A stretch of DNA of 64,000 nt from Isurus oxyrinchus (lineage: Eukaryota), in the NCBI GenBank assembly GCA_026770705.1, contig JANJGN010000301.1:496001-560000 (forward strand). The letters run 5' to 3'. Of this stretch, positions 2,303-64,000 are shown in pieces. Every line of letters starts with the position of its first letter. Position 1 is the first letter of the stretch. Under the pieces are notes generated by a model, which had not been told where the DNA came from, did not search any database, and saw nothing but the letters and a program-made list of their open reading frames with translations. The position numbers and the translations under genes are program-made.

Positions 2303-2705
2303 TGCGGCTTGTGCACAGAAATACTCGGCTGCGTCGCAGATCAGAGCCTTAGCTCCGTTATCTTGGTAGTTATGTTAGATGTAGAAGAGAATTGATCAAC
2401 TGTCTTCTTGTTTTCATTCTCACCGATCAGATTATTGGGGAGCTGTGGATGTTGCTGGGGCTGCTGACTATACCAGAACAAATGGTTATGGAGCAAAAAT
2501 AAGAATAGCTGGAAAATTCTCCGCAGGTCTGACAGCATCTGCGGAGAGGAATACAGTTAACGTTTCGAGTCCATACGACTCTTTGTATGGTTATGGAGAT
2601 TTGTTTTCAAGATGCATATCACGTGGTGTTACAGGCATCATTTCAGTTTCGGCATCATTTCAGCAACCGATCCGATCACTGTGTGTGGATGGCTCCATCC
2701 TAACC
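2303..2705 (-). pseudogene. TCR V-type (beta-like) V-exon pseudogene, split by a retroelement fragment
   Basis: After removing the insert: ICILKTNLHNHLFWYSQQPQQHPQL...FSS...KITELRL / DAAEYFCAQ (YFC at 2315-2323); decayed RSS with heptamer 2296-2302, 23-bp spacer, nonamer CAAAATGCC 2264-2272. Confidence 0.75.
2494..2586. mobile_element. Short Penelope terminal-repeat fragment with 12-bp TSD
   Basis: ATGGTTATGGAG duplicated at 2482-2493 and 2587-2598; same GCTGGAAAA..CAGGTCTGACAGCATCTG motif as the ends of the Penelope copies. Confidence 0.8.
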
Positions 2706-2857
2706 TAAAGTAGTTGGGTAGATGTCATCATTGTCAGGGTCATCATCACCATTATTTCAAGTAGCTTCATCAGCGGCAGCATCACCTTACAATTAATAAC
2801 ATGTGGATTACAACAGTCAGGGGGAGAACGGATTTTTTCTGGGAAGGAAATACTTAC

Positions 2858-2904
2858 TAAGAAGTGATATAATGACGAGGACCGGGTGTGATGTAATTCC
2901 CCAT
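2858..2904 (-). pseudogene. Leader exon of the 2303-2705 V pseudogene (1-nt frameshift)
   Basis: ATG(G)GGAATT... reads MGITSHPVLVIISLL if one G is removed; followed by a GTAAGT donor (phase 1). Confidence 0.6.
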
Positions 2905-3537: not shown

Positions 3538-3618
3538 CCGAATTTAATGAATCTTATTTTCTCTGATCTCACAAAACACGGCAATGGTGCGAGTTGCCCC
3601 GAGGCCTTTCTCACAGAG

Positions 3619-3911
3619 GGTCTCAGCACATAGTAATACACGGGGTTGTCAGCGACCTGAAGCCCAGTCAAGGTAGAAGCAGCTATATTATTGGGTATTT
3701 TTTCGAATGACTGAAAAGCGACCTTTAATGTTCTTTCCACAAGAATGTGCCCGTATTTCGAAAGCTGGAGCCGGGTTCTGGTTCTAACGATGAAGCTGCA
3801 AAAATTAATTCACGTCGGAAATTGAATAGATGCAATTTATGCTCATCGAGATTCTTTCCAGTTGTTGGGCTTCTGTTGACCACTGTCCGACTGAACCTCC
3901 GGAACTCACTC
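3619..3911 (-). pseudogene. TCR alpha/delta-type V pseudogene with decayed 23-RSS
   Basis: Acceptor TTCTGCAG|GA; GVSSGGSVGQWSTEAQQLERISMSINCIYSISDVN*FLQLHR*...GRFS /fs/ ...TLTGLQVADNPVYYYVLR; heptamer CTCTGTG 3612-3618, 23-bp spacer, nonamer ACCATTGCC 3580-3588. Confidence 0.85.
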
Positions 3912-4771: not shown

Positions 4772-6212
4772 ATTTAAAGCAGAAAACTGTGGATGCTGGA
4801 AATCCAAAACAAAAACAAAAATACCTGGAAAAACTCAGCAGGTCTGGCAGCATCTGTGGAGAGGAACACAGTGAACGTTTCGAGTCCGAATGACCCTTTA
4901 ACAGAACTAAGTAAAAATAGAAAAGAGGTGAAATATAAGCTGGTTTAGGGGGTGGGGGGCGGTGGCGTGGGGGGGTTGGACAAGAAGAGCTGGATAGAGG
5001 GCCAGCGATCGGTGGAGATAACCAAAATATGTCACAGACAGAAGGACAAAGAGGTTTTGAAGGGAGTGATATTATCTTAAGGAATGTGCTATTTAAGGGT
5101 AGAAAGCAGGACAAGCAAGGTACATATATCCCTAGTGGGGGTGGGGTAGGGGGAATGGATCGAAATAGGCTAAAAGGTAGAGATAAAATAATGGATGGAA
5201 ATACACTTAAAATAATGGAAATAGGTGGGAAAAGAAAAATCTATATAAATTATTCGAAAAAAACAAAAAGGAGGGGGAAAATCGGAAAGGGGGTGGGGAT
5301 GGAGAAAGAGTTCATGGTATAAAATTGTTGAACTCAATATTCAGTCCAGAAAGCTGTAAAGTGCCTAGTCGGAAGATTAGGTGCTGTTCCTCCACTTTGT
5401 GTTGAGCTTCACTGGAACAATGCAGCAAGCCAAGGGCGGACATATGGGCATGAGAGCAGGGTGGAGTGTTGAAATGGTTAACGAGAGGGAGGTCTGTGTA
5501 ATACTTGCGGACAGACCAAAGGTGTTCTGCAAAGTGGTCACCCAGTCTGCGTTTGGTTTCTCCAATGTAGAGGAAACCGCATTGGGAGCAGCGAATGCAG
5601 TAGTCTAAATTGAGGGAATTGCAAGTGAAATGCTGCTTCACTTGAAAGGAGTGTTTGGGCCCTTGGACACTGAGGAGAGGGGAATTAAAGGGGCAGGTGT
5701 TGTACCTTCTGCTATTGCATGGGAAGGTGCTGTGGGAGGGGGTTGAGGTCTAGGGAGTGATGAAGGAGTGGACGAGGGTGTCCCGGAGGGAACAATCCCT
5801 AAGGAATTCCGCCAGTGGGGGAGAAGGGAAGATGTGGCATCATGCTGGAGTTGGCGGACATGGTGGAGGATGATCCTTTGAATGCGGATGCTGGTGGGAT
5901 GATAAGTGAGGACAAGGGGGACCCTATCATGTTTCTGGGAGGGAGAAGAAGATGTGAGGGCGGATGGGCGGGAGATGGGCCGGACACGGTTGAGGGCCCT
6001 GTCAACTACCGTGGGTGGAAAACCTCCATTAAGGAAGAAGGAGGAGATGTCAGAGGAACTGTTTTTGAAAGTGGCATCATCAGAACAGATGCGACTGAGG
6101 AGAAGGAATTGAGAGAATGGGATGGAGTCCTTACAGGAAGCGGGGTGTGAGGAGCTGTAGTCGAGGTAGCTGTGGGAGTTGGTAGGCTTGTAATGGATAT
6201 TGGTGGATAGTC
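4772..6212 (-). mobile_element. Penelope-like retroelement (GIY-YIG endonuclease end)
   Basis: ORF 5312-5641 CIRCSQCGFLYIGETKRRLGDHFAEH...LGTLQLSGLNIEF is typical of the Penelope GIY-YIG domain; terminal repeat at 4772-4920. Confidence 0.9.
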
Positions 6213-21075: not shown

Positions 21076-21719
21076 ATGGTCCGGGACAGTCATCAGTGAG
21101 ACAAGTTCAGCAGGTCAAGGGCAGTGATAACTGAAGCATGGTTCAGTATAAAATAACGAAACACAATTTGCAGTGAAATATAAATTAAAACATGGTTGTA
21201 CTACAGTGTGAACTGGAAAAGGGTTAATTGGAGTGTGCACAGAAGCACGGCCTAATGTAGTAATAACTGGCCCATGATATGCATGATATAAACAGCAGCA
21301 GTGTCAGGTGCAGTGATAACTGGGAAAGGACCAATTGCAACACAAGTAGAGATATGGACGGCTGTAATAATAAATAAGATAAGGCCCATAGTACCATTAA
21401 CAGTGACGTTCACCTGTACAACAATAACTTAAGCTAAGTGTAATCTAGCGTTTACAGTTACAAATGAGGGTGTGAAATAAATTGAACAGGGGATGTATAG
21501 GAATTATTAAAACAGGGCCTCGATTGACATAAGCTGAGGCAGGGTCTAGTGCAGTGATTCCTGATACAGGGCCTGGATTATTATAGGCTGAGACAGGGCC
21601 TAGTGCAGTGATTACCGATACAGGGTTTAGATTGATATAAACTGAGACAGGGTCTAATGAAGTAATTACTTATACAGGGCTGAGACTAATGTCAACGGAG
21701 GAAGGGTTCAATGCAGTAA

Positions 21720-23030
21720 TATAAAACAGAAAATGCTGGAAAAATGCCGTTCCATTCTCTTAATTTGTTCACCTCCTTCGCATCTGTTCCGACGATGCCA
21801 CTATCCAAAATGATGCTTCTGACATGCCTTCCTTTTTCCTTAACCAAGGTTTCCCTCCCACTGTGGTTGACAGGGCCCTCAACCGTGTCTGACCACTCTT
21901 CTGTGTCTCTGCTTTCACGCATTCCCCTCTCTCCCAGAGTCATGATAAGGTCCCCCTTTTCCTCACATTTCATCCCACCACTCCAGCATTCGAAGGATAA
22001 TCCTCCGACTTTTCTGCCAACTCCAACATGATGCCACCACCAAACACACCTTCCCCTCACCACTCCACCCCCACCCCTGTCAACATTCCACAGGGACCAT
22101 TCCCTCCGAGACACCCTGGTCCACTCCTCCATCATCCGCAACACCTCATACCTTCCCATGGCACCTTCCCAAGTAATCAGAGAAGATGCAACACCTGCCC
22201 ATTTACCTCCTCCCTCCTCACCGTCCAAGGGCCCAAACACTCCTTTCAGGTGAAGCACCGTTTCATTGCACCTCCTTCAATTTGGTTGACTGCATTCAAT
22301 GCTCCCAATGCAGTCTCCTCTAGATTGGGAACACCAAACACAGACTGGCAGGCCGCTTTGTGGAACACCTTCGGTCTATCTGCAAGCATGACCTAGACCT
22401 TCCTGTCGCTTGCAAATTCAACACGCCATCCTGCTCTGATACCCACATGTCCCTCTTTGACCTGCTGCATTGCCCCAGTGAAGCCCAACGCAAACTGGAG
22501 GAACAGAATCTCATCTTCTGATTATGCACTTTACAGCCTTATTCATTTATTCATTATTTTATCCTCTTTTATCCCCTTTTTTGTTCATTTTTATACCGTT
22601 TTTCCCCAACCACCCCTACCACACCCCCAAAAGGGCAATCAGTTACTTGTCCCATGTTGTTCTTTCACAGTGTGTTGATTCTGGCTCTGCTGTTAACACA
22701 TTCTGCTTTCTTACCTTTATGACTCTTTAACACCTACTTTAGCCTTACTACTGCCATTAACACTCCCTTTTTCTGTTTGCCTATGATATGCTTGGCAGTG
22801 TCACCTGACTCCTCCCTATTGCTTGTCTTCTATCCAGCCTGACCTGCTCCACCCCGCTTAAACAGCAAAGATCATCACATTTCGACTTCTCTTTAGCTCT
22901 GAGGAAGGTCATACGGTCTCAGAAAGTTAGCTCTGCTTCTCTCACCACAGGTGCTGTCAGACCTGCTGTGATGTCCCAGCATTTTATGCTATTCTTTCAG
23001 ATTTCCAGCATCCGCACTATTTTGCTTTTA
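21720..23030 (+). mobile_element. Penelope-like retroelement
   Basis: RRCNTCPF...FQVKHRF; homologous to 4772-6212 in the opposite orientation; terminal repeat ~22890-23030. Confidence 0.88.
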
Positions 23031-23760
23031 TCCAGATTGATATAAACTGAGACAGTGCCTAGTGCAGTGATTACTAATGGAGGGTCTAGATTATCATGAA
23101 CTGAGACAGGGCCTAGTGCAATGCTTACTGATACATTGTCTAGATTAATGTAAACTGAGACAGGCTCACGTGCAGTGATAACTGATACAGGATCTAGATT
23201 AATATGAACTGAGACATGCTCGAGTGCAGTGATTACAGACACAGGATTTAGATTAATATAAACTGGGAAAAGGTCTGATCCAGTGTTTATTGATACAGGA
23301 TCTTGATCAATATAAATTCAGACAATGCCCTGATACAGGGTCTAGGTTGATATACATTGAGGCAAGCCATAGTGCGGTGATTATTCATAGAGGGCTGAGA
23401 TAAAAATAAACTAGGACAGGGACTAGAGAAATGATTACTGATACAGTGGGTAGATCAATATAAACTGAGAGAGTGTCCAGTGCAGTGATTAGTGATACAG
23501 GGTCTAGATTAATAAAACTTGAGATGCAGCCAAGTGCAGTGATTACTATTACCGGGTCTAGGTTGATATAAACTGATGCAAGGGCTAGTGCAATGATTAC
23601 TCATAAAGGATCTAGACTAATATAAACTGAGACAGGACCAAGTGCTATGATTACTGATCCATGGTCTAGATCAATATAAAAGGAGGCAGTGTCCAGTAGA
23701 ATGATTACTGAAACAGGGTCTTGATTAATATAAACTGAGACGGAGTATAGTGCTACGATA

Positions 23761-24095
23761 ACAAAAACAAAAATATCTGGAAAAACTCAGCAGGTCTGGC
23801 AGCATCTGTGGAGAGGAACACAGTTAATGTTTCAAGTCTGCATGACTCTTCAACAGAACAAAGGAAAAATAGAAAATGGGTGAAATATAAACTGATTTAA
23901 GGGGGTATGGTGGGATATAAGCTAATAAGATATATTTCACCCCTTTTCTATTTTTGCTTAGTTCTGTTGAAGCGTCATGCGGACTTGAAACGTTAACTGT
24001 GCTCCTATCCCCAGATGCTGCCTGTTCTGCTGAGTTTTTCCAGGTATTTTTGTTTTTGTTTTGGATTTCCAGCATCCACAGTTTTTTGCTTTTAT
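23761..24095. mobile_element. Inverted pair of Penelope terminal repeats with 14-bp TSD
   Basis: 23761-23890 is the inverted copy of 23932-24060; TATAGTGCT(A/G)CGAT at 23746 and 24096. Confidence 0.8.
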
Positions 24096-27000
24096 TATAG
24101 TGCTGCGATTACTGATATAGACTCTGGCTTGATATCAACTGAGACAGGGCATTGTGCAGTGATCATTGATACAGGGTCTAGATAAATATAAACTGGGACA
24201 GGGGCTAGTGCAATGATCACTGTTACAGTGTCTGGACTAAAATAAACTGAGGCATTCCCTAGTTCTGTCAATACTGATACAGGTTCTGGACTAATATAAA
24301 CTGAGTTAAGGTATAGTGCAGTGATTACTGATACAGGATAGGGATTGATATAAATGGAGTCCTGGCATAGTACAGTGATTACTGATACAGGGCCTCGATT
24401 AATATAAAATGCGACAGTGTCCATTGCACTGATTATGATGCATGGCCTAGATCAATATAAACTGAGATAGGGTCGAGTGCAGTGATTACTGATACAGGGT
24501 CTAAATTAATAGAACTTGAGACAGGCCAAGTGCAGTGATTACTGCTAGAGGGTTTAGATTGATATAAACTGATGCTGGGTCTAGTGCAGTGATTACTGAC
24601 ACAGGGTCTAGATCAATATAAACAGAAACAGGGGCTAGCGCAGTGATTACTGATCCAGGGTCTATATAAAAATATACTGGGATGGGGGCCAGTGCAGTGA
24701 TTACTGATACAGGGTCTGGACTCATAAACTGAGGCATTTTCTAGCTCTGTCATTATTGATACAGGTTGTAGACTAATATAAATTGAGACAGGGTCGAGCG
24801 AAGCGTTAACTTATACAGAATCTGGATTGATATAAGCTGAGGCAGGCCATAGTGCAATGATTACTGATACAGTGTCTGAATCAATATAAACTGAGACAGA
24901 GCCTAGTGCAATGATGACTGATACAGGGTCCAGATGATAAAGAGTGAGGCAGGGCATTGTGCAGAGATTACTGATACAGGGTCTAGATTAATATAAACTG
25001 AGACAGAGCCTAGTGCAGTGATTACTGATACAGGGTCTAGATTAATATAAACTGAGACAGAGCCTAGTGCAATGATGACTGATACAGGGTCCAGATGATA
25101 AAGACTGAGGCAGGGCATTGTGCAGAGATTACTGAAACAGGGACAAGGTGAATATAAAGCAGGAGAGAGGCTAGTGCAGTGATTAATGATACAGGATCAG
25201 GGTCAGTATAAACTGAGGCAGTGCCCATTGCAGTGATTACTGATACATGGCCTAAATTAATATGAACTGAGGCAGGGCCTAATGCAATGATTACTGATTT
25301 AGGGACCAGATTAATATGAAGTGAGGCAGGCCATAGTGCAGTGATTACTGATTCAGGGTCTAGATCAATATAAACTGAGACAGGGATTAGTGCAGTGATT
25401 ACTAATAGAGGGTCTAGGTTGATATAAAGTGAGGTAGGGCCTAGTGCAGTGATTACTGACACAGGGAGGAGAGCAATATAAACTAGGTCAGGGGATAGTA
25501 CTGTGATTAATGATAGAGGATGAGGATCAATATAAACTGAGACAGTGTCCATTGAAGTGATTATGGTTACAGGGTGTACATCAGTATAAACTGAGATAAG
25601 GTCCAGTGCAGTGATTAATGATGCAGGGTCTGGATTAATATAACATGAGGCAGTGTCTAGTGCAGTGATTACTGATCCAAGGTCTTGATAAATATAAAAC
25701 TAAGATCATGTCTAGTGCAGTGATTACTCATACAAGGTCTAGATTAATATGAACTGAAGCACAGCCTAGTGCAGCGATTACTGACTTAGGGACTAGATTG
25801 ATATAAACTAAGAAAGGGCATATTAAATTGATTACTGATGCAGGGTCCAGGTTAATAGAAACTGAGAGAGGGAAAAGTGCAGTGGTTATAGATTCAGGGT
25901 GCAGATTATTATAACCAGAACAGGGACGAGTGCAGTGATTACTGAAACAGGGCCTTGATTAATATAAACTGAATCAGGCTCTTGTACAGTAATCACTGAT
26001 ACACGGTCTGAACTAACATAACCTGAGACAATGCCTGGTGCACTGTTCACTGACACAGGGTCCAGATAAATATAACAGGGACAGGGGCTCGGGCAGTGAT
26101 TACCGCTGCAAGGGCTAAATTAATATAAACTTTGATAGGGCCTAGTGCAGTGATTATTGACACAGGGTCTAGACTGATTTTAAAAAACTGAGGCAAGGCA
26201 TAGTGCAGTGATTGCTGATACAAGGTACAGATTAATATAAACTGAGACAGGGCCTAGATAAATATAAGCCAGGACAAGGGCTAGTGCAGTGATAATGATA
26301 CAGGATCATGATCAATATAAACTGAGACAGTGTCCTTTGCAGTGATTACTGATACAAGATCTAGATCAATATCAATGGAGAAAGGGCCTAGTGCAGTGAT
26401 TACGGATAAAGGGTCTTGATTGATATAAACTGAGGCAGGGCATTGTGTAGTGATGACAAATGCAGGCTCTATGTTAATATAAAATGTGACAGGGTCTCAT
26501 GCAGTGATTACTGACACAGGGTCTATTTGATATAAACTGAGGGAGGGCATATTGCAGTGATAGCCTAGAGCAATATATATGGAGACAGTGTTCATTGCAG
26601 TGATTGCTGATGCAGGGTCTTGATTAGTGAAAACTGAGACACTGCAAAGTGCAGTGATTACAGACAAAGAGTCAAGGCTGATATAAACTGAGGTAGACCA
26701 TAGTCAGTGATTACTGATACTGGGTCCAGATAAATATAAACTGAGACAGGCTCGAGTGCAGAAAGAACTGATGCAAAATCTAGATCAATAGAAACTGATG
26801 CAGGGTCTAATGCATTGATGATCGACACAGGGTGTAGATTAATATAACCTGAGGCCAGGCCTAGTGCAATGATTACAGATGCAGGGTCGAGAATGATAAA
26901 AACTGAGGCAGGGCATAGTGCAGGGATTACTGATACAGGGTCGAGATTAATCTAAATTGAGACATGGTCTGGTGCAGTGCTTACCGATACAGAATCAGGA

Positions 27001-28974
27001 TCAATATAAACTGAGACAGGGCCCAGTGCAGTGATTACTGACACATGGTATCAATCAATATTAACTCAGACAATGTCCAGTGCAGTGATTACTGACACAG
27101 AGCCTAGATTAATATAAACTGAGGCAATGTCTAGTGCAGTGATTACTGATAGTGTCCAGATCAATATAAACTGAGATAGGTCCAAGTGCCACGATTATTG
27201 ATACAGGGCCTGGATTAATATAAACTGAGACAGGGCCTAGTGCAGTCATTACTGATACATGAACTAAATTAATATAAACTGAGACGGGCTCTAGTCCAGT
27301 GTTTACTGATACAGGGTCTCAATCAATATAAACTCAGACAATGCCGAGTGCACTGATTACTGATACAGGATCTAGATTTATAAAAACTGAGGCATGTTCT
27401 AGTGCAGTGATTACAGATGCAGAATCTATCTTAATACAAACTGAGACAGGTTCTTGTGCAGTAATTATTGATTCAGAGTCTCAATCAATATGAACTCAGA
27501 CAACGTCCAAAGCAGTGATTACTGATACAGGGCCGAGATAAATATAACTTGAGGCAGGGCCTACTGCAGTGATTACTGATACAGGGTCTAGGTTAACAGA
27601 AACTGAGAGAGGGCCAAGTGCAGTGATTATAGAGTCAGGGTGCAGATTATAATAACCAGAACAGGGTCGAGTGCAGTGATTACTGATACAGGGTCTTGAT
27701 TAATATAAACTGAGACAGGCTCTTGTGCAGTAATTACTGATCCATGGTCTGAACTAACATAACCTGAGACAGGGCCTGGTGCAGTGTTCATTGATACAGG
27801 GCCTAGATAAATATAACTGGCGCAGGGACTCGGGCAGTGATTACTGATACAGGGTCTAGGTTAATATAGATATTGAGATGGGGCCTAGTGCAGTGATAAC
27901 TGAAACAGGGTCTAGATTCATAAAAAAAGCTGAGGCAGGGCATGGTGCAGGGATTACTGATACCGGGCCGAGATTAATATAAACACAGAGAGGCTCAGGT
28001 GCAGTGATTGCTGATATAGGGTCCAAATTGATATAAAATGACACAGGATCTAGTGCAGTGATTACTGATACAGGGCCTAGATTGATATAAACTGAGACAA
28101 GGCCGAGGGCCATGATTTGTGTTACAAGGTTGGATGCATATAAAATGGAACAGGGTCAAGTGCAGTGATTACTGATACAGGGTCCGGATTAATTGAACCT
28201 GAGAAACAGCCCAGTGCAGTGCTTTTAGGTTCAGGGTGCAAATTATTATTGCTAGAACAGGGTTGAATGCAGTGATTACTGAATCAGGGTCTTGATTAAT
28301 ATAAACTGAGACAGGCTCTTGTGCAGTGATTACTGATACAGGGTCTGAACCAACATAAAGTGTGAAGTATTCATTGATGCAGGGCCTAGATAAATATAAC
28401 TGGTACAGGAGCTCTTGCAGCGATTACTGCTGCAGGGACTAAATTACTATAAACTGAGACTGGATCTAGTGCAGTGATTACTGATAGAAGGACTGGGCTA
28501 ATGTAAAGTGAGACAGAGTCTAGTGCAGAGATAACAGATGTGGGACCAAGATCCATATGAACTGAGACAGGGTCGAGATCAATATCAACTGAGACAGTTT
28601 TTACTGCAGTGAATACTGATACAGGGTCTTGATTAATAAACACTGAGACAGGGCCTAGTGCAGCGATTAATGTTATAGGGGCTAGATTAATATCGACTGA
28701 GAGAACCTCAAGAACAGAGATTACAGATACAGGGTCTAGATTAATATAATCTGAGACAGGTCTAGTGTAGAGATGACTGATACATGGCCTAGCTCAATAT
28801 AAATTGAGGCAGTATCCAGAGCAGTAATTACTGACACGGGGTCTTGATTAATATAAATTGCGGAGGGCACAGTGCAGTGATTCCTGATGCAGGCTCTAAA
28901 TTAATGTAAACTGTGCAAGGCCTAGTATGGTGATTACTGATACAGGGTCTAGATTGATAAAAACTGAGACAGGG

Positions 28975-29130
28975 CAGAATATAATTCAAAAATTGGCTTT
29001 CTTGTAGGAGACAGAGGATGATGACAGAAGGATGCTTTAGTTACTGGAAGCCAGTGTCCAGTGGCGTAGCACAGGGATCTGTGCTGGGTCCCCTATTATT
29101 TGTCATTTATATAAACGACATAGATGGCTA
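28975..29130 (+). mobile_element. CR1 fragment, duplicate of the 5' end of the 33765 CR1
   Basis: Same CCAGTGTCCAGTGG..CACAGGGATCTGTGCTGGGTCCCC segment and same satellite junction. Confidence 0.85.
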
Positions 29131-32100
29131 GATTAATAGAAACTGAGACAGGTTCTAGTGCAGTGTTTACTGATACATGGTCCTGATCAATATAAACTCA
29201 GACAATGTCCAGTGCAGTCATTACTAATACAAGGTCTAGATCAATAGAATCTGAGACAGGGTCCAGTTCAATGAAAACTAAAGTAAGGTCAAGATTAATA
29301 TAAACTCAGACAATGTCCAGTGCAGTGATGGCTGATACAGGGTCTGGATCAATATAAACTGAAACAGTGTCCAGTGCAGTGATTACCGAAACAGGGTCTA
29401 AATTAATATAAACTGAGACAGAGCCTAGTGTGATGATTACTAATATAGGGTCTAGACGATAAAAACAGAGGAAGGGCATAGTGCAGTGATTACTGATACA
29501 GGCTCTAGATTAATGTAAACTGAGACAGAGCCTAGTGCAGTGATTACTGATACAGGGCCGAGGTAAATATAATGCAGGACAGAGGCTAGTGCATTGATTA
29601 ATGATACTGGATCAGGGTCAATATAAACTGAGACAGTGTCCATTGAAGTAATTACTGATACATTGCCTAAATTAATATGAACTGAGGCAGGCCATATTGC
29701 AGTAATTACTGAACAAGGCTCTAGGGCTAATATAAACTGAGACAGGGCCTAGTGCAGTGATTACTGATACATGGTCTAGATCAATATAAACTGAGGCAGT
29801 GTCCAGTAGAGTGATTACTGATACAGGGTCTTGATTAATATAAACTGAGATGGGGTCTAGTGCAGTGATTCCTGATACAGGCTGTAGCTTGACAGAAGCT
29901 GACACTGGGCATTGTGCAGTGATTACTGATCCATGGTCTGGATAACTATAAACTGGGACAGGGGCTACTGCAGTGATTACTGTTACAGTGTCTGGACTAA
30001 AATAAGTGGAAGCATTCTCTAGATCTGTTATTACTGATACAGTTTCTGGACTTATTTAAACTGAGATAAGGTCTAGTGCAGTGATTACTGATACAGGATA
30101 TGGATTGATATAAACTGATGCTGGATCCAGTGCAGTGATTACTGGCACAGCGTCCAGATCAATATAAACAGAGATAGGGACTAGTGCAGTAATTACTGAT
30201 ACACGGTTGACATAAATATAAACTGGGATAGGGGCCAGTGCAGTGATTACTGGTATAGGGTCTGGACTCATGTAAATGGAGACAGGGTCCAGCAAAGTTA
30301 TTACTGATACAGGATCTGGATTGATATAAACTAAGGCAGGCCATAGTGCAGTGACTAGTGTCGCAGGGCCAAGATAAATAAAATCGAGGACAGCGGCTAG
30401 TGCAGTGATTACTGATACGGGGTCTAGAACAATATAAAGTGAGGGTGGTCATTGCACTGATTATTATGCAGAGTTTGATTTATTTAAGATGAGACAGGCC
30501 CTAATGCCAGGATTACTGATACAGGGTCTGGATCAATATAAACTGAAACAGTGTCCAGTGCAGTCATTATTGATACAGGCTCTGGATGATAAAAACTGAA
30601 GCAGGGCATAGTGCAGTGATTACTGGTACAGGGTCGAGGTAAATATAAACTAGGACAGAGGCTAGTGCATTGATTAATGATACAGGATCAATATCAATAT
30701 AAACTGAGACAGCGTCCATTGCACTGATTACTGATGCATGGCTTAAATTAATATGAACTGAGTCAGGGCCTAGTGCAGCGATTACTGATTTAGGGTCTAG
30801 ATTAATATGAACTGAGGCAGGCCATATTTCAGTGATTACTAACACAGGGACTAGATTAACATAAACTAGGACAGGGGATAGTGCAGTGATTAATGATACA
30901 GGATCAGGGTCAATATAAACTGAGACAGTGTCCATTGAAGTGATTACAGTTACAGGGTGTACATCAGTATAAAATGAGACAGTGCCTAGGGCAGTGATTA
31001 CTGATCTTAGGTCTTGATAAAAATAAAACTAAGATAGTGATTAGTGCAGTGATTACTGATACATGGTCTTGATTAATATGAACTGAGGCATGGCCTAGTG
31101 CAGTGATGACTGATTTAGGGTCTAGATTGATATCAACTAAAATAGGGAAAATTGCAGTAATTGCTGATACAGGGTTGAGATTGACATAAATTGAGGCAGG
31201 GCATATTGCAGTGATTACTGATAGAGGGTATAGGTTAATAGAAACTGAGAGAGGGCCAAGTGCAGTGATTATAGATTCAGGGTGCAGATTATTATAACCA
31301 GAACAGGGACAAGTGCAGTGATTACTGAAACAGGGCCTTGATTAATATAAACTGAGACAGGCTCTTGTACAGTAATTACTGATACACAATCTGAACTAAC
31401 ATAACCTGAGACAGGGTCTGGTGCAGTGTTCACTGACATAGGGCCCAGATAAATATAACTGGGACAGGGGCTGAGGCAGTGATTACTACTGCAGGGACTA
31501 AATTAATGTAAACTGAGATAGGCCTAGTGCAGTGATTACTGATACAGGGCCTAGATTGATAAACAAAATGACACCTGGCATATTGCACAGCATCTAGCTT
31601 AATATAAACTTCGGCAGAACCGAGTGCAGTAATTACTGACACATGATCTCAATCAATATGAACTTAGACAATGTCCAGTGCAGCGATTACTGATGCAGAG
31701 CTAGATTAATATAAGCTGAGGCAGGGCCTCATGCAGTGATAATTGATACAGGGTCTAGATTAATAGAAACAGAGAGAGGGCCAAGTGCACTGAATACTGA
31801 TAGAGGGTCTAAATTGATATAAACTGAGGTAGGCCACATTGCTGTAATTACTGATACAGTGTCCCGATCAATATAAACTGAGATAGGTCCAAGTGCAGTG
31901 ATTACCGATACAGGGTCTGGATTAATATAAAGTGAGACAGGGCCTTGTGCAGTCATTACTGATACAAGATCTAGATTAATATAACCTGAGACGGGGCTTA
32001 TTGCAATTATTACTGATAGATGGTCTGGACTAATTTAAACTGAGGCAGGCCAAAGTGCAGTGATGACTGATACAGGATCTAGATTAATATAAACTGAGAC

Positions 32101-33764
32101 AGGGTCTAGCACAGTGTTTATTAATACAGTGTCTCAATCAGCATAACTCAGACAATGTTGAGGGCAGTGATTACTGATACAGGATCCAGATTAATGTAAA
32201 CTGAGGCATGCTCTAGTGTACTGATTACAGGCACAGGATCTAGCTTAATATAAACTGAGACAGGTTCTTGTGCAGTAATTACTGATACAGGGTCTCAATC
32301 AATATAAACTCAGACAATGTCCAGTGCAGTGATTACTGATACAGGGCCAAGATAAATATGAACTGAGGCAGGGCCTACTGCAGTGATTACTGATACCGGG
32401 CCAAGATAAATATGAACTGAGGCAGGGCCTACTGCAGTGATTACTGATACAGGGTCTCGGTTAATAGAAACTGAGAGAGGGCCAAGTGCAGTGATTATAG
32501 ATTCAGTGTGCAGTTTATTATAACCAGAACAGGGACGAGTGCAGTGATTACTGAAAAAGGGGCTTGATTAATATAAACTGAGACAGACTCTTGTACAGTA
32601 ATTACTGATACAAGGTCTGGACTAACATAAACTGAGAAAGGGCCTGGTGAAGTGTTAATTGATACAGGGCCTAGATAAGTATAACTGAGATGAGGCAGTG
32701 ATAACTGATACAGGGTCTAGATTGCTAAAAAAAAACCTGAGGCAGGACATAGTGCAGGGATTACTGATAACGGGCTGACATTAATATAAACTCAGAGAGG
32801 TTCAAGTGCAGTGATTACTGGTATAAGGTCCAAATTGATATAAAATGACTTGCGTCTCGTGTAGTGATTACTGGTATAGGGTCTGGATTGATATAAACTG
32901 AGACAAGGCCTGGTGCCGTGATTTGTGTTGCAGGGTTGGATGCATATAAAATGGGACAGGGCCTAGTGCAGTGATTACAGGCACAGGTTTTAGATTAATA
33001 TAAACTGAGAAACAGTGCAGTGCAGTGCTTTTAGGTTTAGGGTGCAAATTATTAATACCAGAACAGGGTCGAGTGCAATGTTTACTGCAACTGGTTCTTG
33101 GTTAATATAAACTGAGACAGGCTCTTGTGCAGTAATTACTGATGCAGGGTCTGAACCAACATAAACTGAGACAGGGCCTGGTGAAATGTTCACTGGTACA
33201 GGGCCTAGATAAATAAAACTGAGACAGGAACTCTTGCAGTGATGACTGCTGCAGGGACTAAATTAATATAAACTGAGGCTGGATCTATTGCAATGATTAC
33301 TGATAAAGGGACTGGGCTAATATAAAGTGAGACAGAGTTTAGTGCAGATATAACTGATGTGGGGTCAGGATCAATATAAACTGAGACAGGGTCTGTTGCA
33401 ATGATTACTGATACAGGGTCTAGATCAAAGTCAACTGAGACAATGTCAATTGCAGTGATTTCTGATCCAGGGTCTTGATTGATAAAAACTGAGACAGGGC
33501 CTAGTGCAGTAAGTAATGTTAAGGGTCTAGATTAATATAAACTGAGAGAGCCTCAAGTACAGAGATTACAGATACAGGATCTAGATTATTATATGCTGAG
33601 ACAGATCTAGTGCAGAGTTTACTGATACATGGTCTAGCTCAATATAAACTGTGGCAGGGCATAGTGCAGTGATTACTGATGCTCTAAAGTAACGTAAGGA
33701 AGACAAGGTCTAGTACGGTGATTACAGATACAGGGTCTAGATTGATAAAAACTGAGGCAGGGAA

Positions 33765-34850
33765 GAATATAATTCTAAAATTGGATTAGTTGTAGGAGAC
33801 AGAGGGTGATGACAGAAAGACGCTTTAGTTACTGGGAGCCAGTGTCCAGTGGTGTACCACAGGGATCTGTGCTGGGTCCCCGATTATTTGTTATTTATAT
33901 AAACAAAAGTGGATGCCTACATGTGGGGTAGGATTAGTAAGTTTACGGAGGATACAGAGATTGGCCGGTTGGTTAACAGTGATGTTGAGTGTTTTGGGCT
34001 ACAGGAAGATATAGATGGAATGGTCAAATGGGCAGATAAGTGGCAGATGGAATTTAGCACTGAAAAGTGCGAGGTGATACACCTTGGAAGGAGTAATTTG
34101 ACTATGAATGGGATGACACTAGGAAGTTCTGAGGAACAAAGGGACCTTGGCATGTGTGTCCATAGGTCTCTGAAGGCAGAGGGGCATCTTAGTGGGGTGG
34201 TGAAAAAGGCATATGGGTCACTTGCCTTTATCAATTGAGGCATAGATTACAAAAGTAGGAAGGCCATGTTAGACTTGTATAGAACCTTGGTGAGGTCACA
34301 GCTTGAGTACCATATGCAGTTCTGGTCGCCACATTATAGGAAGGATGTGATGCACTGAAGAGGGTGCAGAGGAGATTCACCAGGATGTTGCCCGGTATGA
34401 AACATTTAAGTTATGAAGTGAGGTTGGATAGACTTGGGTTGTTTTCATTGGAGCAGAGAAGACTGAGGGGAGACCTGATTGAAGCGTACAAGATTCTGAG
34501 GTGTGTGGACAGGGTGAATAGGGAGCAGCTGTTGCCCTTAGTTGAAGGGTCAGTCACAAGGAGACATAAGTTCAAGGTGAGGGGCAGGAGGTTTAGGATG
34601 CTTTTGAGGAAAAACGTTTTTACCCAGAGGGTGGTGATGGTCTGGAATGCGCTGCCTGGGATGGTGGTGGAGGTGGGTTGCTTTACATCCTTTAAAAAGT
34701 ACTTGGTTGAGCACTTGGCACGTCATAACATTCAAGGCTATGGGCCAAGTGCTGGTAAATGGGATTAGGCAGGTAGGTCAGGTGCTTTTCACGTGTCGGT
34801 GCAGACTCGATGGGCCAAAGGGCCTCTTCTGCACTGTGTGATTCTGTGAT
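33765..34850 (+). mobile_element. CR1 LINE 3' portion
   Basis: GVPQGSVLGP; ORFs 33909-34238 and 34364-34768 are CR1 RT C-terminus. Confidence 0.93.
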
Positions 34851-36414
34851 AATATAAACTGATTACTGATACAGGTCTAGATCAATATCAAGGGAGACAG
34901 CGTCTCGTGCAGTGATTACTGGCAGAATCTAGATTAATACAAACTGTGACAGGGCCGAGTGCTGTGATTACTGACACAGGGACGAGATTATTATAAACTA
35001 GGACAGGGGCTAGTGCAGGAATTAATGATACAGGATCAGGATCAATATAAACTGAGGCAGTGTCCTTTCCAATGATTACTGTTAGAGGGTCTGGACTAAT
35101 ATAAACTGAATCAGGGCCTAGAGCAGTCATTACTAATACAGGGTCAAGATTAATAGAAACTGAGACAGAGCCTAGTGCAGTGGTTACTGATGCAGGGTGT
35201 AGATTAATATAAACTCAATGTCCAGTGCAGAGATGACTGACAGAGGGTCTAGATTAATGTAAACTGAGACAGGGTCCACTGCAGCGATTAATGATACAGG
35301 GTCTAAATTAATATAAACTGAGACAGTGTCTAGTGCAGTGATTCCTGATATATGGTCTGGACTAGAATAAACTGAGACAGGGCCAAGTGCAAGAATTACT
35401 TCATCATTGACGCCCATATCCCAAGAATGAATTAAAACACTGCAAAATACTGCATGTTTGGGAAATCTAAGGCAGAGCAAAAAATAACCACTCAGCAGGT
35501 CAGTGGGCATCAACAGAGAGAGAAACAGGTCAAACGTTCAGGCCGATGACAGGTGCAAAATCTCCCTTAGTACAAATCTATAGAGCAGGACTGTTCTCCC
35601 CACTATCCTAGTCCAGTATTCATTCTTCAACTAAAATCACATATTATCTTATCATTTTTTGCAGCTCTATTCGTGGGAGCTTGCTGTGCACAAATCACCG
35701 GATGGATTTCCAATATTACAGCAGTGACTAAACTTCAACAAATGTACATCAACGAATTTCAAGGGCTTTAGGACGTCCTGGGGTCACAAGCTGCGTTCTA
35801 TAAATGTAAATTCTTCCTAAATGTTAACATTTTAAAATGCTAGTTGTGATATGTTGAAAACTCTAAGATTAATATGATTATAGGTCGCTCCTGTGGCTGC
35901 TGTTTTAAATTATCCATTTTTAATCAGTTAAATCTTCCAACAAATTGACATTGAGTGTAATCCCAGCCTGTTCAAATATTCATCATTGATTGTGACAGTA
36001 GCACTTTCAGAATTGAATTATTAATTTAAATGTATTTTTAATTATTTGAAATAAATAACATCTGTTCTAATGGATGTTGAAAATGTTTCTAGTAATTTTG
36101 TACCAACTGTCAATATTCTTAAAATAAACCCTTGTTTTGAGTTGAAACCAATCAATAAGTGTCTGTGTTTATCTGGTTTTGCTGCCATGAACACTTCATT
36201 GAAACCAATGAGGCGTTTATGTAAATAAACACAGAAATAGAAGTCCCAGATTAGATTCTGGATACACAAAAGCACAGCAAATATTTCCCCATCAATAGAG
36301 CACAGAAATAGAGTCAAACATGCAAATACATCAACAGATTTCAGTAACAACTTTTTTTGGGCATTTTTAAAATCAGTTATATGAGAATTATGTCACGACG
36401 ATATCTATTTTCAG

Positions 36415-36640
36415 AATTAAGTAAGATTCCCACTGATCATGAAATATAATGTCAAGGCAAATGTGTTTGTAGGGATGTCCTGTATCCTCGCTCTCTCTGT
36501 GTCTCTTTCTCCTCTCTGGTACTTTGTCTTGTCTCTCCACCATGGGTCACTGTCTTTACTCCACAACATGATGTCAATGTCTAGCCAATATATTTTCTCA
36601 GCCCGATTCATACACTTCAAACTATATTGATCAAATGAAA
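36415..36640 (-). pseudogene. IgL-like V relic
   Basis: ORF track: SLKCMNRAEKIYW...KYQRGERDTER..QDIPTNTFALTL, followed by a D-S-G-x-Y-like stretch. Confidence 0.45.
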
Positions 36641-36649
36641 TGGATTATA

Positions 36650-37640
36650 ATCCGTAGAGGGAACTTTATTCTAAATCTGTTTTGAGCATTCACTGACTTG
36701 AGAGTGCTTGGTGGGAAACTGCAGATGAAACTTTACTCTGTATCTAACCTGTGTTGCAGCCAGGAGCGTAGATTTGATGTGGCCGTGCCGAAGGACCTTT
36801 CCCTGTATCTAACCCGTGCTGTTCCTGCCTTTGGCGTGTCTGATGGGACAGTGTAGAGGGAGCTTTACTTTGCACGTAACCTGCACTGTGACAGCCCTGG
36901 GAGTGTTTGATACGACTGTGTAGAGGGAGATTTACTCTGTATCTAAACTGTGCTATACCTGATTGATAGGGCCGTTTAGAGGGAGCTTCACTCTGCATCT
37001 AAACTACTCTATATTTGACATGGCTGTAGACACTGTAGAGGGGGATTTGCCCCATCTAAGCCCTGGAAATACCTGATGTGATGGTTCAGAGGCAGCTTTC
37101 CTCTTTACCTGTCCCCAGTGTCGAGCTACCTGGGAAATGTCTGATGAAGTGTGCAGAGGAAACCTTACACTGCATATAACCTTACATGCCTCAACAGTGT
37201 TTGAGCAGACAATGTAGAGGAAGTTTTACCCTGTTTCTGAACTGTGCTGCACCTGTCCTGGAAATGTTTGATGGTGACAGTGTCGAGGGAGATTCACTCT
37301 GAATCTAACCTGTGCTATACCTGCATTGGGAGATTTTCATGTGGCAATGTAAAGGGAACTTTACATTATTAATGTAGCCCCATGCTACACCTGTCCTGGG
37401 GCTGTTTGATGGAGCCGTGGGCCTTGTTTATGCATTACACTAGACCGTGTCCAACCGTATCTAACCCTTGCTGTACCTGCCCCGGGAATGTTTCATGGTG
37501 ACAGTGTCGAGGGAGTTTCTCTCTCTCTAACCCATGCTGCATCTTCCCTGGGAGTGTTCAATGTGACAATGTAGAAGTAGCTTTAAATTCTGTGCCTAGC
37601 CCCATGCTGCACTTGTCCTAGGAGTGTTTGATGGGACAGT
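36650..37640 (+). repeat. ~65-bp tandem repeat
   Basis: GTGTAGAGGGAGCTTTACTCTGTATCTAACC..TGCTGTACCTG.CCTGGGAGTGTTTGATGG units; an extra copy at ~54125-54220. Confidence 0.9.
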
Positions 37641-39005
37641 AGACCCTGTCTTGATATTGCGTTCGACCGTGACCCTGTCTCTGTTTATATTACAGTTGAC
37701 CCTGCCTCTGTTTGTATTGCACTAGGCCCTGTCCCTGTTTATATTGCATCTGACATGTATCTGTTTATATTGCACTAGATGGTGTCTCTGTTTACATTGC
37801 ACTTGGCCCTGCCCGTGTTTATATGACACTCAACATGTCTCCTTATATTCGACATGCCTCTGTTTATATTGCACTAGGCCCTGCCCTGGTTTATATTACA
37901 CTAGACCCTGTTTCTGTTTATGTTGCACTGATCCCTATTTTGGTTTACATTACATTAGACCGTGTCTCTGTTTATATTATACTAGGCTCTGCCCCTGTTT
38001 GTATTACACTTGATATGTCAGTGTTTATATTACACTCGGCATGTCTCTGTTAATATTATACTCGACATGCCTTTGTTTATTTTGCACTAGACGCTGTATC
38101 TGTTTATATTACATTAGATCCGGTCTCTGTTTATATTGCACTAGGTCATGCCACTGTTTATATTAAACTGGGCCCTGTATGTTTATAATACACTAGACTC
38201 TGTCTCTATTTATATTACACTGGACCCCGTTTCTGTTTATATTACTCTAGATCCTGTCTTTGCTTATATTAAACAAGGCCTTGTCTCTGTTTATATTATG
38301 ATTGACCTGTCTCTGTATATATTCATCTAGAACTGTCTCTGTATTTCAGTAGCCACTGTCTCAGTTCTGTGCTAGATCATATCTGTATTTAAATTACATT
38401 AGACCCTGCCTCTGTTATTACTGCACTACACATGTGCCATAATGTGGAAATTGGCTGGGGTGGAAATAGTGAAGATAAGGCAGCAAGATGGTGGGAACAA
38501 TTAACATGGGGGCCTGTTTAGATGTTATGACTTGTCCTCCCTGCATCCCAGATTTGTGTTCATGATCCACAGACCTCTCTTATATTGCAGCTGTTTAAAT
38601 TAAACCATTTAACTCCTATTTTCAGGCTCTAGTGCAATAAAGTAAGGGAATATACTAATGTAATATAAACAGAGGACAATTACATAAATATCTAAGACAG
38701 GACCTAATGTTACAGAAACAGAAACATGGACTAGAACAGTAACAAAGAGACAGGCCCAGTAAAATACTACCAGAGACATGGTAGAGAGCAGCAATAACTG
38801 AGACAGAGTCCAGTGTTACAGAAACAGAAACATGAACTAGAGCAGTAACAATGAGACAGGCCCAGTGTAGTATCAACAGAGGCTTGGTGGAGAGCTGCAA
38901 TACTTAGACAGGATCTAGTATTACAGAAACAGAATCACGGACTAGAGCAGTAACAATGAGACAGGCTGAGTGTAATATTAACAGAGACACGGTGGAGTTC
39001 AGCAA
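37640..39005. repeat. 27-bp satellite, - orientation (37640-38430) then + orientation (38625-39005)
   Basis: Direct inspection. Confidence 0.8.
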
Positions 39006-48435: not shown

Positions 48436-48564
48436 GTGAGTAGTTTTTTATTGTCCAAGTCTCTCACTGTTACTGTCTCAGTGTTAGTCTCTCTCTGGAA
48501 TGTTACAGAGTCAGAAATCATTTCACCAGGATTAATCCTCGGGGTTTTTGATTTATTTTTACAG

Positions 48565-48869
48565 GTGTTCAGTCGGAGGTTGTGTTGACTCAGCCAGAGG
48601 CAGAGACCGGGCGTCCCGGAGGCTCCCTGAGACTGACCTGTAAAACCAGCGGCTTCAATCTTGGCAGCTACGGCATGTGTTGGGTCCGACAGGTTCCCGG
48701 ACAGGGGCTGGAGTGGCTGCTTTGGTACTATAGTTCATCCAGCAACAACTATGCCCCAGCAATTAAGAATCGATTCACTGCGTCCAAAGACACTTCAAGG
48801 AACATCTTCTCCTTGGACATGACGAGCCTGAAGAGTGAAGACACCGCCATCTATTACTGTACAAGAGAC
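48565..48869 (+). CDS. IGHV: Germline IgM VH exon
   Basis: TTTACAG acceptor; (R)[25 protein letters not shown]...[12 protein letters not shown]...[11 protein letters not shown], open frame. Confidence 0.98.
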
Positions 48870-48908
48870 CACAGCGAGAGGAACCAGGGCTGGACCCGAA
48901 CAAGAACA
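48870..48908 (+). other. VH 23-RSS
   Basis: CACAGCG - 23 bp - ACAAGAACA. Confidence 0.95.
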
Positions 48909-49278
48909 GATCGAGAGAAACTCAACAACTGCCATCGTAACCTGACGGTCAGTACTTGTTTTAAATGTAATATTAACTGTAATGATCAGAACCCGACAAC
49001 TAGTCGCTTCTGACCAAAGTAAAGCAGCAAATTTAACTATAAAACCTAACAAACCAATTGATATAATGGGCTGAGCTTTTGGCTGTGCTTACATTTACTG
49101 TTAATAGTTTCCACAATTACAGACATAGATATAATGTTCATTTGAATATGTCTGATACTTGGACGGGATCACTATTCATTGAGTTTTGTAAATTGCTGCA
49201 TAAATACTAAACTAGATCAGAAGTAAACGTCTATTTGAAGTAAATATTGCGAGGCAGCACTGAACAGAGAGTGGGTGC

Positions 49279-49358
49279 AGTTTTTGTGCGGGTGTATTTC
49301 ACTGTGATACTACAGGGGGTCACAGTGCTGTGCACAGCGACATCCTCTTACAAAAACT
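49279..49358 (+). other. D1 segment (coding 49307-49320) with 5' 12-RSS and 3' 22-RSS
   Basis: AGTTTTTGT-12-CACTGTG ATACTACAGGGGGT CACAGTG-22-ACAAAAACT. Confidence 0.95.
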
Positions 49359-49663
49359 TCAGAAGGAGTTTGTTCAAATTGGTGATCACTATCACAACAG
49401 GAAAAGTCAAAGAAAATGGGAGCTAAATAAAATAATGGGTATAAGTAATATTGGTTTGCAAAAATATATAAAAGTATTCCGCTTTGTGTTTACGGACACG
49501 CTAAATCTTCACAGAGGCTTTTAAAGACCTCCAGTCACATTTAAAATATAATGACCAGCACAGGCTGAAATACCTCACTGATTCACACTTAGGTGAGTCG
49601 GAATCAGGTTTTTGAGAGCGCAGTGAAATTAAATCTCTGTATTTACAGTTAACAGTCTGCCGC

Positions 49664-49732
49664 AGTATTTGACATGGTGTCTCTCACTGTGATATGCTGG
49701 ATGGCACAGCAGTTACTGTCAATACAAAAACC
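49664..49732 (+). other. D2 segment (coding 49692-49704) with 12/12 RSS
   Basis: AGTATTTGA-12-CACTGTG ATATGCTGGATGG CACAGCA-12-ACAAAAACC. Confidence 0.93.
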
Positions 49733-50061
49733 CCTCAGCACTCATTGAGTCTGCCTGGGTCAGTGCTCGCTTTTACAATCCTGCTATATTTACAATGAAG
49801 TATTATTTTTGTCCAGCACTGCCCAAAAAACCTGGTTTAAGATGGAAAAGCTGTGATAATTATCCATTCATCAATTGGTGAATTCAATAACATGTTCATG
49901 TGTTATTCTGTGAATTATAAAACTCGAGGATCATTGATGAGTAGCTACAGATATCTACAAACGCAAATATAATTTCGCGAAGATTCATCGTGACCTCCCT
50001 TTGCCTCTGACTTAGGAATATTTAAAATAATGGTGGATTTCTGTCTTTTTGGTGCAGGCAC

Positions 50062-50148
50062 AGTTATTGTATGGCACAGCCCAGGGAATGTAACACTGTG
50101 ACGGGATGGACTACTGGGGACAAGGGACCATGGTGACGGTGACTGCAG
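50062..50148 (+). CDS. IGHJ: JH segment (coding 50101-50148) with 23-RSS
   Basis: AGTTATTGT-23-CACTGTG; GMDYWGQGTMVTVTA; GTAAG donor. Confidence 0.97.
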
Positions 50149-61585: not shown

Positions 61586-62132
61586 ATGTACATACGATTG
61601 GAAAACGTCGTACTTACTGTAACTGGTATTCAATTTAGAGCTCTATGGTCACTAGTAAGGTACCATTGCAAAGGTACCTTCGGAGAGTCGTTGCTATTCT
61701 TTGTTTTGGGGGTCATGGAGCGGGGAGTAAATTTGAACATAGCCAGTTTCCAAACTGCAATGATATAAATGACGAGACAATTTCTCTATCACCAAGTGCT
61801 GTTGATTGAGAAATAAATGGTGCCAAAATAATGGGGAAGATGCTCTGCTCTTCCATTTTAATCCACTGAAAGGTACGTCATTCAGATGACATCAAAATGT
61901 TCTCTTTTAGCAATGGGATAGAAGCGGAAAAAGAGGTGTGGGTTTCTAAAGAGGGAACCGACAGGCGAGGATCACCAAATGATGGAAATAATAAATGATG
62001 AAATGTGGATGTGGGTTTTAGTTGGAATATATTTGGATATGTTTATAGTTATAGTTTAATTTCAAGTTGTTTGGTTACTTAATGATCACAATTCACAGAG
62101 TCTAACTTGTTCAATCGGCCATTCTTTCCCAG

Positions 62133-62432
62133 TGACACCGTCTTCGCCCACTCTCTACAGCCTGGTCTCCTCCTGTCAGCAACAAAACACCGACGGCTCC
62201 GTCACCTATGGCTGTTTGGCGATGGACTACTCCCCAGAAATCACAAGCTTGACCTGGAAGAAAGATGGGCAGCAGATTACCACTGGATTTAAGACATACC
62301 CGTCAGTGAGAAACCAGAAGGGAACCTACACCCTGAGCAGCCAATTAACCATCACCGAGTCAGAGGGAGAATGCAGCAAAATCAAGTGTGAGGTTCGACA
62401 CAGCGTCTCAGACAAGAGCGTTGAAATGCAAT
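62133..62432 (+). CDS. IGHM: IgM Cmu1 exon
   Basis: TTTCCCAG acceptor; [14 protein letters not shown]...[19 protein letters not shown]; GTAAGT donor; 300 bp. Confidence 0.97.
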
Positions 62433-62646
62433 GTAAGTGTTGGGGAACGTGTGAGAAACAGAAAGGCTGTGATTGACCTGTATAGGGCCTTGGTTATAAC
62501 ACATTAATAGTGCTCTGCATAGTTCTGATCCCTGGAAATTCCAGGTTAGTGTCCATTGACTGCAAAGAACCTGTTAAAATATAAGAACTCATTGTATCTG
62601 TTATCAATTTCTTCTGCAAGAAATGGCTAACCTGTGTTTTTTGAAG

Positions 62647-62961
62647 GTCCTCCTGACATCTTACATCCAACTGTTCTCCTCACCGTGAGCTCCAAGGAAG
62701 AAATCACAACGAACAAATTTGCAACCGCCGTCTGTTCAATCATCGATTTCCGTCCGAAGCCAATCACCGTGAAGTGGCTGAAAAATGGACAACCCATGAG
62801 TTCAGGAATTATCACCCCTCCCGCCTTTGAAATGAACGGGAACTTCTCGGCGACCAGTCGGCTGAAAGTCTCCGCTGGGGAATGGTTCAGCGACGCAGTG
62901 TATACCTGTCAGGTCACTCACCAAGGGGTCACCCAAAGTCGAAACGCCACCAAGTGTGAGG
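62647..62961 (+). CDS. IGHM: IgM Cmu2 exon
   Basis: HPTVLL...[16 protein letters not shown]...[14 protein letters not shown]; phase-1 splice sites. Confidence 0.96.
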
Positions 62962-63889: not shown

Positions 63890-64000
63890 GTGAGCGGTGA
63901 GATTGAAGCAATAAGTTGTTCGATGTGTCTATTTCCAGTGTAAGTGTAAGGATCAATATTTACTATTCATTGTATTCATGGTCTACTCTGATTAGCAATT

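Follow-up and report, generated by a model that had tools for sequence, protein, structure and literature searches.

In elasmobranch fishes, TCR alpha/delta V genes, V pseudogenes and NAR-TCR genes are interleaved with IgM clusters in a complex that, in the great white shark, spans about 9 Mb (Flajnik et al. 2025, PMC12227049). In the gene table of the same report, two of the NAR-TCR entries are found at about 39 and 42 kb from an oppositely oriented IgM gene and face away from it. Linkage between Ig genes and TCR genes as well as shared use of alpha/delta V genes have also been described elsewhere (PMC3964593, PMC5931798, PMC6795676, PMC5192425). The occurrence of TCR alpha/delta V genes and NAR-TCR between IgM clusters is thus known in outline from sharks.

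In the current study, a 64-kb stretch of Isurus oxyrinchus DNA (contig JANJGN010000301.1, positions 496,001 to 560,000, here called the window) was analysed. Its setting resembles the complex of PMC12227049, as far as that is listed there, in that alpha/delta-type V exons, V pseudogenes and NAR-TCR cassettes alternate with IgM clusters over megabases. A broken V segment on its minus strand (2265-2904), here called V-A, had been read in a preliminary description as a TCR beta-like V pseudogene with a leader, split by a Penelope fragment. The observation of a TCR-type V pseudogene with leader, insert and dead RSS was confirmed.

Anatomy of V-A and origin of its insert

The structure of V-A was set by aligning 40 copies from the genome with three intact relatives. 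Leader exon 1 (2858-2904, 47 nt, minus strand like all parts of V-A) has the donor GTAAGT at 2857 and is followed by a GT..AG intron of 158 nt (2700-2857), which is of phase 1 in the intact relatives. The 5' part of the V exon (2587-2699) comprises L2, FR1, the Cys23 codon (2614-2616) and the first target-site copy (2587-2598), and FR1 contains a short tandem duplication at about 2634-2664 plus small deletions. A 93-bp piece derived from the 3' terminal region of a Penelope-like element (2494-2586) separates it from the 3' part of the exon (2305-2493), in which the second target-site copy (2482-2493), the Trp41 codon (2473-2475), a 10-nt deletion in FR3 and YFC (2315-2323) are found. The dead RSS (2265-2304) consists of the heptamer CATGCTG (2298-2304), a 24-nt spacer and the nonamer TCAAAATGC (2265-2273).

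The target-site 12-mer ATGGTTATGGAG has exactly two occurrences in the window, those bracketing the insert. When the insert and one repeat copy are removed, V-A reads CILKTNLHNHLFWYSQQ, which restores C-x11-W as the preliminary description had stated. The repaired site (38 nt between two anchors) is equal in length to the empty site in eight sister copies.

The Cys23, Trp41 and Cys104 codons are all present in V-A, in broken frames, and DAAEYFCA (about 2312-2335) is in a different frame from the restored stretch. A leader exon with a GTAAGT donor does lie upstream, as the preliminary description stated, but the exon is frameshifted, since it has 47 nt instead of the 46 of intact relatives; from its ATG it reads MGNYITPGPRHYITS, and the hydrophobic stretch is in another frame. 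Donor and acceptor of the split leader, with its phase-1 intron, are homologous to those of intact relatives by alignment. In one contig of run X1, a run taken as RNA by guess (95-99% alike), the leader of the intact member L068 is joined to the V exon with 155 nt (GT..AG) skipped, which supports the exon structure of V-A.

The RSS remnant was missed by a consensus RSS scan and was recognised through alignment to intact relatives. Its spacer is 24 nt rather than the 23 nt given earlier, and the heptamer has lost the invariant CAC. Eleven of the 13 intact family members listed have the same spacer length, which belongs to the long-spacer (23) class and is not diagnostic against beta. Members with a 24-nt spacer include L050, L052, L053, L065, L067, L068, L069, L071, L073, L075 and L079, and read-through in the horn shark model P0017 implies the same RSS spacing. 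With frameshifts in leader and V exon and a broken heptamer, V-A is unable to encode a V domain. Three V fragments of the window, including one of 48 aa, gave no match in Pfam, being too short and decayed; an intact relative matched the V-set domain with 54.6 bits, above the cut-off.

The insert is 85% identical to window positions 4810-4899, and it has matches at six other places in the window. Positions 4810-4899 sit 416 bp behind a GIY-YIG-like ORF (5312-5749), within a truncated Penelope-like element (4790-6210, minus strand) that comprises the end of the RT region, this ORF and a 3' terminal region matching the insert. In a survey of 81 long tiles (864 kb), enough sequence was available behind 14 endonuclease-like ORF ends. 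Behind 11 of the 14, a match to the V-A insert on the same strand was present within 700 bp, usually at a distance of about 400 bp (0.024 expected per stretch). A fuller relative of the element in L242 matched RVT_1 (E 1e-6) and GIY-YIG (E 2.5e-4), both slightly below the Pfam cut-offs.

Penelope-like elements are described as carrying RT and a GIY-YIG ORF that is followed by a terminal repeat (Cervera and de la Pena 2014, PMC4209133). The elements found here have the same layout, and since the insert matches the terminus behind RT and GIY-YIG, the identification of a Penelope fragment was borne out. The insert differs from the published elements in that just 93 bp are present, and Rfam gave one chance match and no hammerhead. 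In the insert (window 2494-2586, and L247) a hairpin is followed by GAAAC, resembling half a hammerhead ribozyme. The repeat family of the insert dominates the contigs of four runs guessed to be RNA.

Among the 40 listed copies of V-A, the insertion site carries the insert in 21, is empty in 18 and holds a different insert in one. A different insert of about 90 bp was seen at almost the same place in L021 (C26:27,316,300 region), and its start gave the impression, no stronger than that, of being tRNA-derived.

Association with IgM and history of the copies

The IgM cluster that had been noted near V-A lies inside the same window. An IgH V-D-D-J minicluster (48552-50140, plus strand; VH at 48573-48866; RSS order 23 / 12-D-22 / 12-D-12 / 23-J) is head-to-head with V-A, and the first three IgM-type constant exons are found at 62060-63900 (plus strand). 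We call the latter C-mu by their place in the cluster layout and by shark IgM sequence features rather than by a named database match. Between the TCR V block and the IgM cluster, the spacer contains arrays of a 27/54-bp minisatellite (21512-38342).

The genome holds at least 40 copies of V-A, of which 22 are on contig C26 and the others on six small contigs; some V-A-bearing contigs may be alternative haplotypes of C26. In most copies a second V segment, V-B, precedes V-A on the same strand, and a NAR-type V lies within 10 kb downstream of V-A in 16 of the 19 copies examined. Among the 40 listed copies, 33 are head-to-head with a C-mu1 exon at 44.7-63.1 kb (median 55.7), counted in a bracket of 40-70 kb that was picked after the distances were seen; random placement gave a mean of 1.7 and a maximum of 9 head-to-head pairs in 10,000 trials. 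Pairs in the same orientation were found for one copy in 40, and on C26 alone 19 of 22 copies were head-to-head with C-mu1. Two probes from the spacer were colinear in at least 29 and at least 25 of the 40 listed units.

The association is not complete on either side. Seven of the 40 listed V-A copies are without an IgM partner, two of them at contig ends. Among 62 close C-mu1 copies, 29 have no V-A partner among the matches listed, and about 50 more distant C-mu1 copies are nearly all on contigs without a listed V-A copy. Eight C-mu1 exons (on C26, C151, C152 and C301) encode an identical protein, and the V-A copies linked to them, where present, are about 8% different, which suggests that the IgM constant regions have been homogenised.

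The 10-nt FR3 deletion, which causes one frameshift, is common to all 37 informative copies, the other three of the 40 having larger deletions over the site. V-A was therefore probably dead before it was multiplied. With the insert columns removed, the 21 copies that carry the insert group in a single clade (SH-aLRT 99; median difference 6.5%), indicating a single origin of the insert.

Distances between V-A copies and between their C-mu partners were uncorrelated (Spearman 0.10, p 0.15, n 33; on C26, -0.01, n 19), and a co-phylogeny of V-A and C-mu was unsupported for this reason. Simple co-duplication alone thus fails to account for the data, which suggest exchange between units. The window itself is a mosaic. 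At V-A (1.6% apart) and at a probe at 15 kb (96%) it is closest to the C140:600 kb unit, whereas at a probe at 39 kb other units are closer, and its C-mu is 11% from that of the C140:600 kb unit. The switch of closest paralogue falls across the 27/54-bp minisatellite (21.5-38.3 kb), and exchange between units within the minisatellite would be a likely cause of the mosaic.

Taken together, we are highly confident that V-A is a dead TCR V of alpha/delta type at the edge of an alpha/delta V and NAR-TCR block which faces away from an IgM cluster, and that it was probably multiplied passively within a duplicated unit of IgM and TCR V genes. In the proposed sequence of events, one ancestral V copy would have been inactivated by the 10-nt FR3 deletion and then amplified along with its IgM neighbour. 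A fragment of a Penelope end may later have been retroposed into one descendant, producing the 12-bp duplication, and this lineage would have expanded to at least 21 copies. Units may subsequently have exchanged sequence by crossover or gene conversion, perhaps within the 54-bp minisatellite, so that the IgM side was swapped against the TCR V side.

We lean, by a modest degree, towards a wider reading in which the duplication unit in this shark is more than the IgM minicluster, namely a chimeric amplicon made up of an IgM cluster, a minisatellite spacer of about 45 kb and a divergent TCR alpha/delta V and NAR-TCR block. Recombination would reshuffle the two sides, and turnover of antibody clusters would cause the repertoire of T-cell V and NAR-TCR segments to expand over about 17 Mb. 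If this is true, the dead V and its insert would be a neutral marker that makes the history traceable.

Selection on regulatory DNA near V-A, for example on behalf of the NAR-TCR cassette, would be another way to fix the position of V-A relative to IgM. Position and orientation were kept despite the shuffled sequence histories, and the NAR-type V found downstream in most copies examined would fit such a role, but the colinear spacer DNA accounts for the fixed distance without selection, V-A gathers insertions and deletions freely, and the seven copies without an IgM partner (two at contig ends) also argue against a required arrangement. We therefore regard selection as an unlikely substitute for passive hitch-hiking.

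Class of the V-A family

The preliminary description had assigned V-A to TCR V-beta from the motifs HNxLFWY and YFCA. HN-x-L/M-F/Y-WY is a CDR1/FR2 motif of V-beta genes. It is absent from the intact relatives of V-A, which were found by a protein search of the genome and start with EWSHQDTVEQ, so it was not inherited in V-A. At this site the relatives read TSDPNPYVYWY (C-x12-W) and the V-A lineage has lost 3 nt, which turned a C-x12-W ancestor into HNHLFWY. YFCA is the ending of the V-A family itself (AVYFCAM), which has intact members within the IgM/TCR alpha-delta region. The assignment to V-beta fails, since V-A nests among intact V genes of alpha/delta type, as follows.

After excision of the insert, and with no repair of frames, V-A was compared by blastn with 89 candidate V exons from the genome, one of them a V-A paralogue. 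It matched 13 intact family members (E 3e-22 to 4e-7, 59-69% identity), and the best V-beta was at E 0.054. DNA profiles scored V-A at 96.8 bits for the family versus 13.8 and 6.2 bits for two V-beta sets. In PDB, the best 60 rows for the family profile included 22 single TCR alpha chains and no single beta chain, besides 5 single-chain TCR fusions and 33 antibody constructs; a control search with a V from contig C31 gave 4 beta and no alpha chains.

A protein tree was built from 68 of 69 rows, with no V-gamma and without the VH of L246, and with pseudogenes frame-projected on a family member. V-A is nested in a family clade of 21 rows (100/93) that includes intact alpha/delta-type V genes, and the 13 V-beta rows form a separate clade (96/94). 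The family, V-beta and several alpha/delta rows arise from one open fork. Because the deep forks are open, V-gamma is absent and the pseudogenes are projected, the tree backs family membership more than deep relationships. An AU test rejected the window V-A forced with V-beta (p 0.011); the same constraint on all four pseudogenes stayed above rejection (p 0.074). VH, VL and NAR V are all remote from the family in the tree, and V-A as a VH/TAILV, a light-chain V or a NAR V was rejected by its placement in the tree.

Members of the V-A family were also found in horn shark, catshark, bamboo shark and a ray. The catshark member is annotated as TCR alpha-like, the best named relatives of the family are TCR alpha chains, and gene models of horn shark and elephant shark (P0001, P0006) join a member to an adjacent canonical V-alpha in one fusion. 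When an intact member was used as the query, two homologue searches each yielded a single protein, neither of which had a constant domain, and the best 16 of 150 matches of a family profile search were germline gene models, none of which had a constant domain. No junction of the family with J-alpha or J-delta was seen in the run X1 contig or in the four runs guessed to be RNA, and these four runs gave only repeat matches on the J-alpha region. Judged by its sequence, V-A is best classified as a TCR V pseudogene of alpha/delta type, and the claim of a beta type is unsupported.

V-B (3612-3911, minus strand) is a second broken V of alpha/delta type, with the heptamer remnant CTCTGTG. It has lost Trp41 and contains stops and a frameshift, and no leader exon was identified for it. 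There is no significant nucleotide match between V-A and V-B, and the two are in separate starred clades in the tree, so V-A does not belong to the family of the V at 3619-3911, in agreement with the preliminary description. The single-chain TCR entries that V-B matches in PDB are of alpha or delta type, and one row among them bears the name 'beta chain' (4qrr_D). The proposal of two different TCR V classes about 0.7 kb apart was wrong because V-A is not a V-beta, and V-A and V-B, both of which give alpha/delta matches, are two families of one class.

The segments to which V genes of either class could be joined were found on two other contigs. A search for J-segment patterns gave 16 J-alpha-type segments on C242, which also has D and J-delta segments, C-delta with the transmembrane exon LRLLFFKSIAFNVMMT, C-alpha with LRLLFLKSIVFNILMT, two V-A copies and a C-mu1. 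C31 carries a D-beta core (GGGACAGGGGG), J segments, C-beta, the transmembrane exon YLILICKSIFY and V-beta genes. We take the D, J and transmembrane motifs on these contigs to be class signatures; they were used because PDB searches with C domains gave no TCR class, such searches being dominated by multi-domain antibodies. None of the 62 V-A matches listed is on C31. Intact family members would be expected to rearrange to the D-delta/J-delta or J-alpha segments of C242.

Several V-type segments were seen on these and other contigs. At C31:0.84-1.60 Mb, V-beta genes lie on both sides of D-J-C-beta and are mostly oriented towards it, and a second array of beta-type V segments (CAASE/CAAGE ending) is present on C163, C1134 and C1481. 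Unusual V-like exons (QLQLEQTPASE..., SSFLEKPEAE...) lie at C242:558-585 kb (L128-L131), together with a VH-like segment just upstream of D-delta that may be a TAILV-type gene. C8:68.008-68.025 Mb (L240-L242) contains a pair of divergent V-type exons together with a C1 exon and an exon of transmembrane-like type, which by appearance are not TCR gamma.

The contig of V-A (C301) is unjoined to C242 or C26 and carries NAR-TCR and V-alpha segments. A NAR-TCR leader-V-D-J with VNAR matches starts on the same strand about 3.2 kb past the V-A RSS and is followed by a supporting V-delta. About 20 more V-like segments, the majority broken, are found at C301:416-496 kb. Since the NAR-TCR cassette and these segments adjoin it, V-A is the edge of an alpha/delta V field. 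This cassette, which lies just outside the start of the window at C301:490,598-495,123 (L227), comprises a leader, a NAR V, a single D, a J and the supporting V-delta; its V, J and supporting V are stop-free in translation, and the supporting V-delta has a consensus 23-RSS, behind which at least five tandem 23-RSS-like repeats occur (490,230-490,540, contig coordinates).

V domains whose sequence is intermediate are mentioned for this region in PMC12227049, and the V-A family could be a V class of its own, 'intermediate between TCR and Ig' or V-gamma-like, that is not used with C-alpha or C-delta. The 24-nt RSS spacer of most intact members is unusual and the comparison set contained no V-gamma reference, but the best named relatives are TCR alpha chains, the family is distant from VH, VL and NAR V, and the fused gene models of horn shark and elephant shark join a member to a canonical V-alpha neighbour, which makes a separate class very unlikely. 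That V-A is a true V-beta, or of a beta-derived family, stranded in the IgH/TCR alpha-delta complex as a relic of ancient beta/delta linkage draws on the surface motif, the open deep fork, the AU result for all four pseudogenes and a great white shark V between two IgM genes that Table S1 of PMC12227049 lists as 'TCRbV' (LOC121270145; its NCBI description is TRAV14/DV4-like), yet we hold it to be the least credible reading, and rejected it, as the motif is missing in intact relatives and is the product of a 3-nt deletion, V-A lies outside the V-beta clade, the beta locus on C31 has no V-A match among those listed, and the DNA profiles, the PDB chains and the AU test of the window copy all oppose it.

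Comparison with known systems

A V-beta beside IgM would have surprised models of the separation of TCR loci; with that reading unsupported, V-A is a real but ordinary pseudogene of an alpha/delta-type V, in an arrangement of a published kind, and it does nothing itself. The remaining interest lies in the amplicon and its shuffled history. The shared frameshift and the single retroposon insert date duplications that carried IgM clusters together with TCR alpha/delta V and NAR-TCR blocks, and the marker provides a handle on the growth of the shark antigen-receptor complex and on the ready exchange of segments between Ig and TCR delta. A literature search found no description of a fixed IgM-plus-TCR-V amplicon, and earlier work may already cover the family or the spacing.

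The V-A family resembles human alpha/delta V domains in that its closest single-chain structures are alpha/delta, and in its split leader, long-spacer RSS and YFCAM ending. The PDB rows behind this comparison are named no more closely than TCR alpha or delta chains, and their human counterparts are presumably V domains of the TRAV14/DV4, TRAV38-2/DV8, TRAV19 and TRDV1 types. The family differs from the human genes in its shark-type EWSHQDTVEQ start and its mostly 24-nt spacers, and the V-A copy is dead.

The supporting V-delta of NAR-TCR follows the NAR V-D-J and has no leader of its own. V-A is in the same block and on the same strand, but it possesses a leader, is located upstream of the NAR V and belongs to another clade, and it was rejected as a supporting V-delta on these grounds; the actual supporting V-delta sits some 4 kb downstream of the NAR V.

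With respect to the great white shark, PMC12227049 lists gene models, and its listing does not extend to a repeat unit of fixed spacing, to a dead V common to the units, to an insert that dates them or to a discordance between the histories of the two sides. The arrangement studied here agrees with the great white shark table of that report in that NAR-TCR faces away from an IgM gene on the opposite strand.
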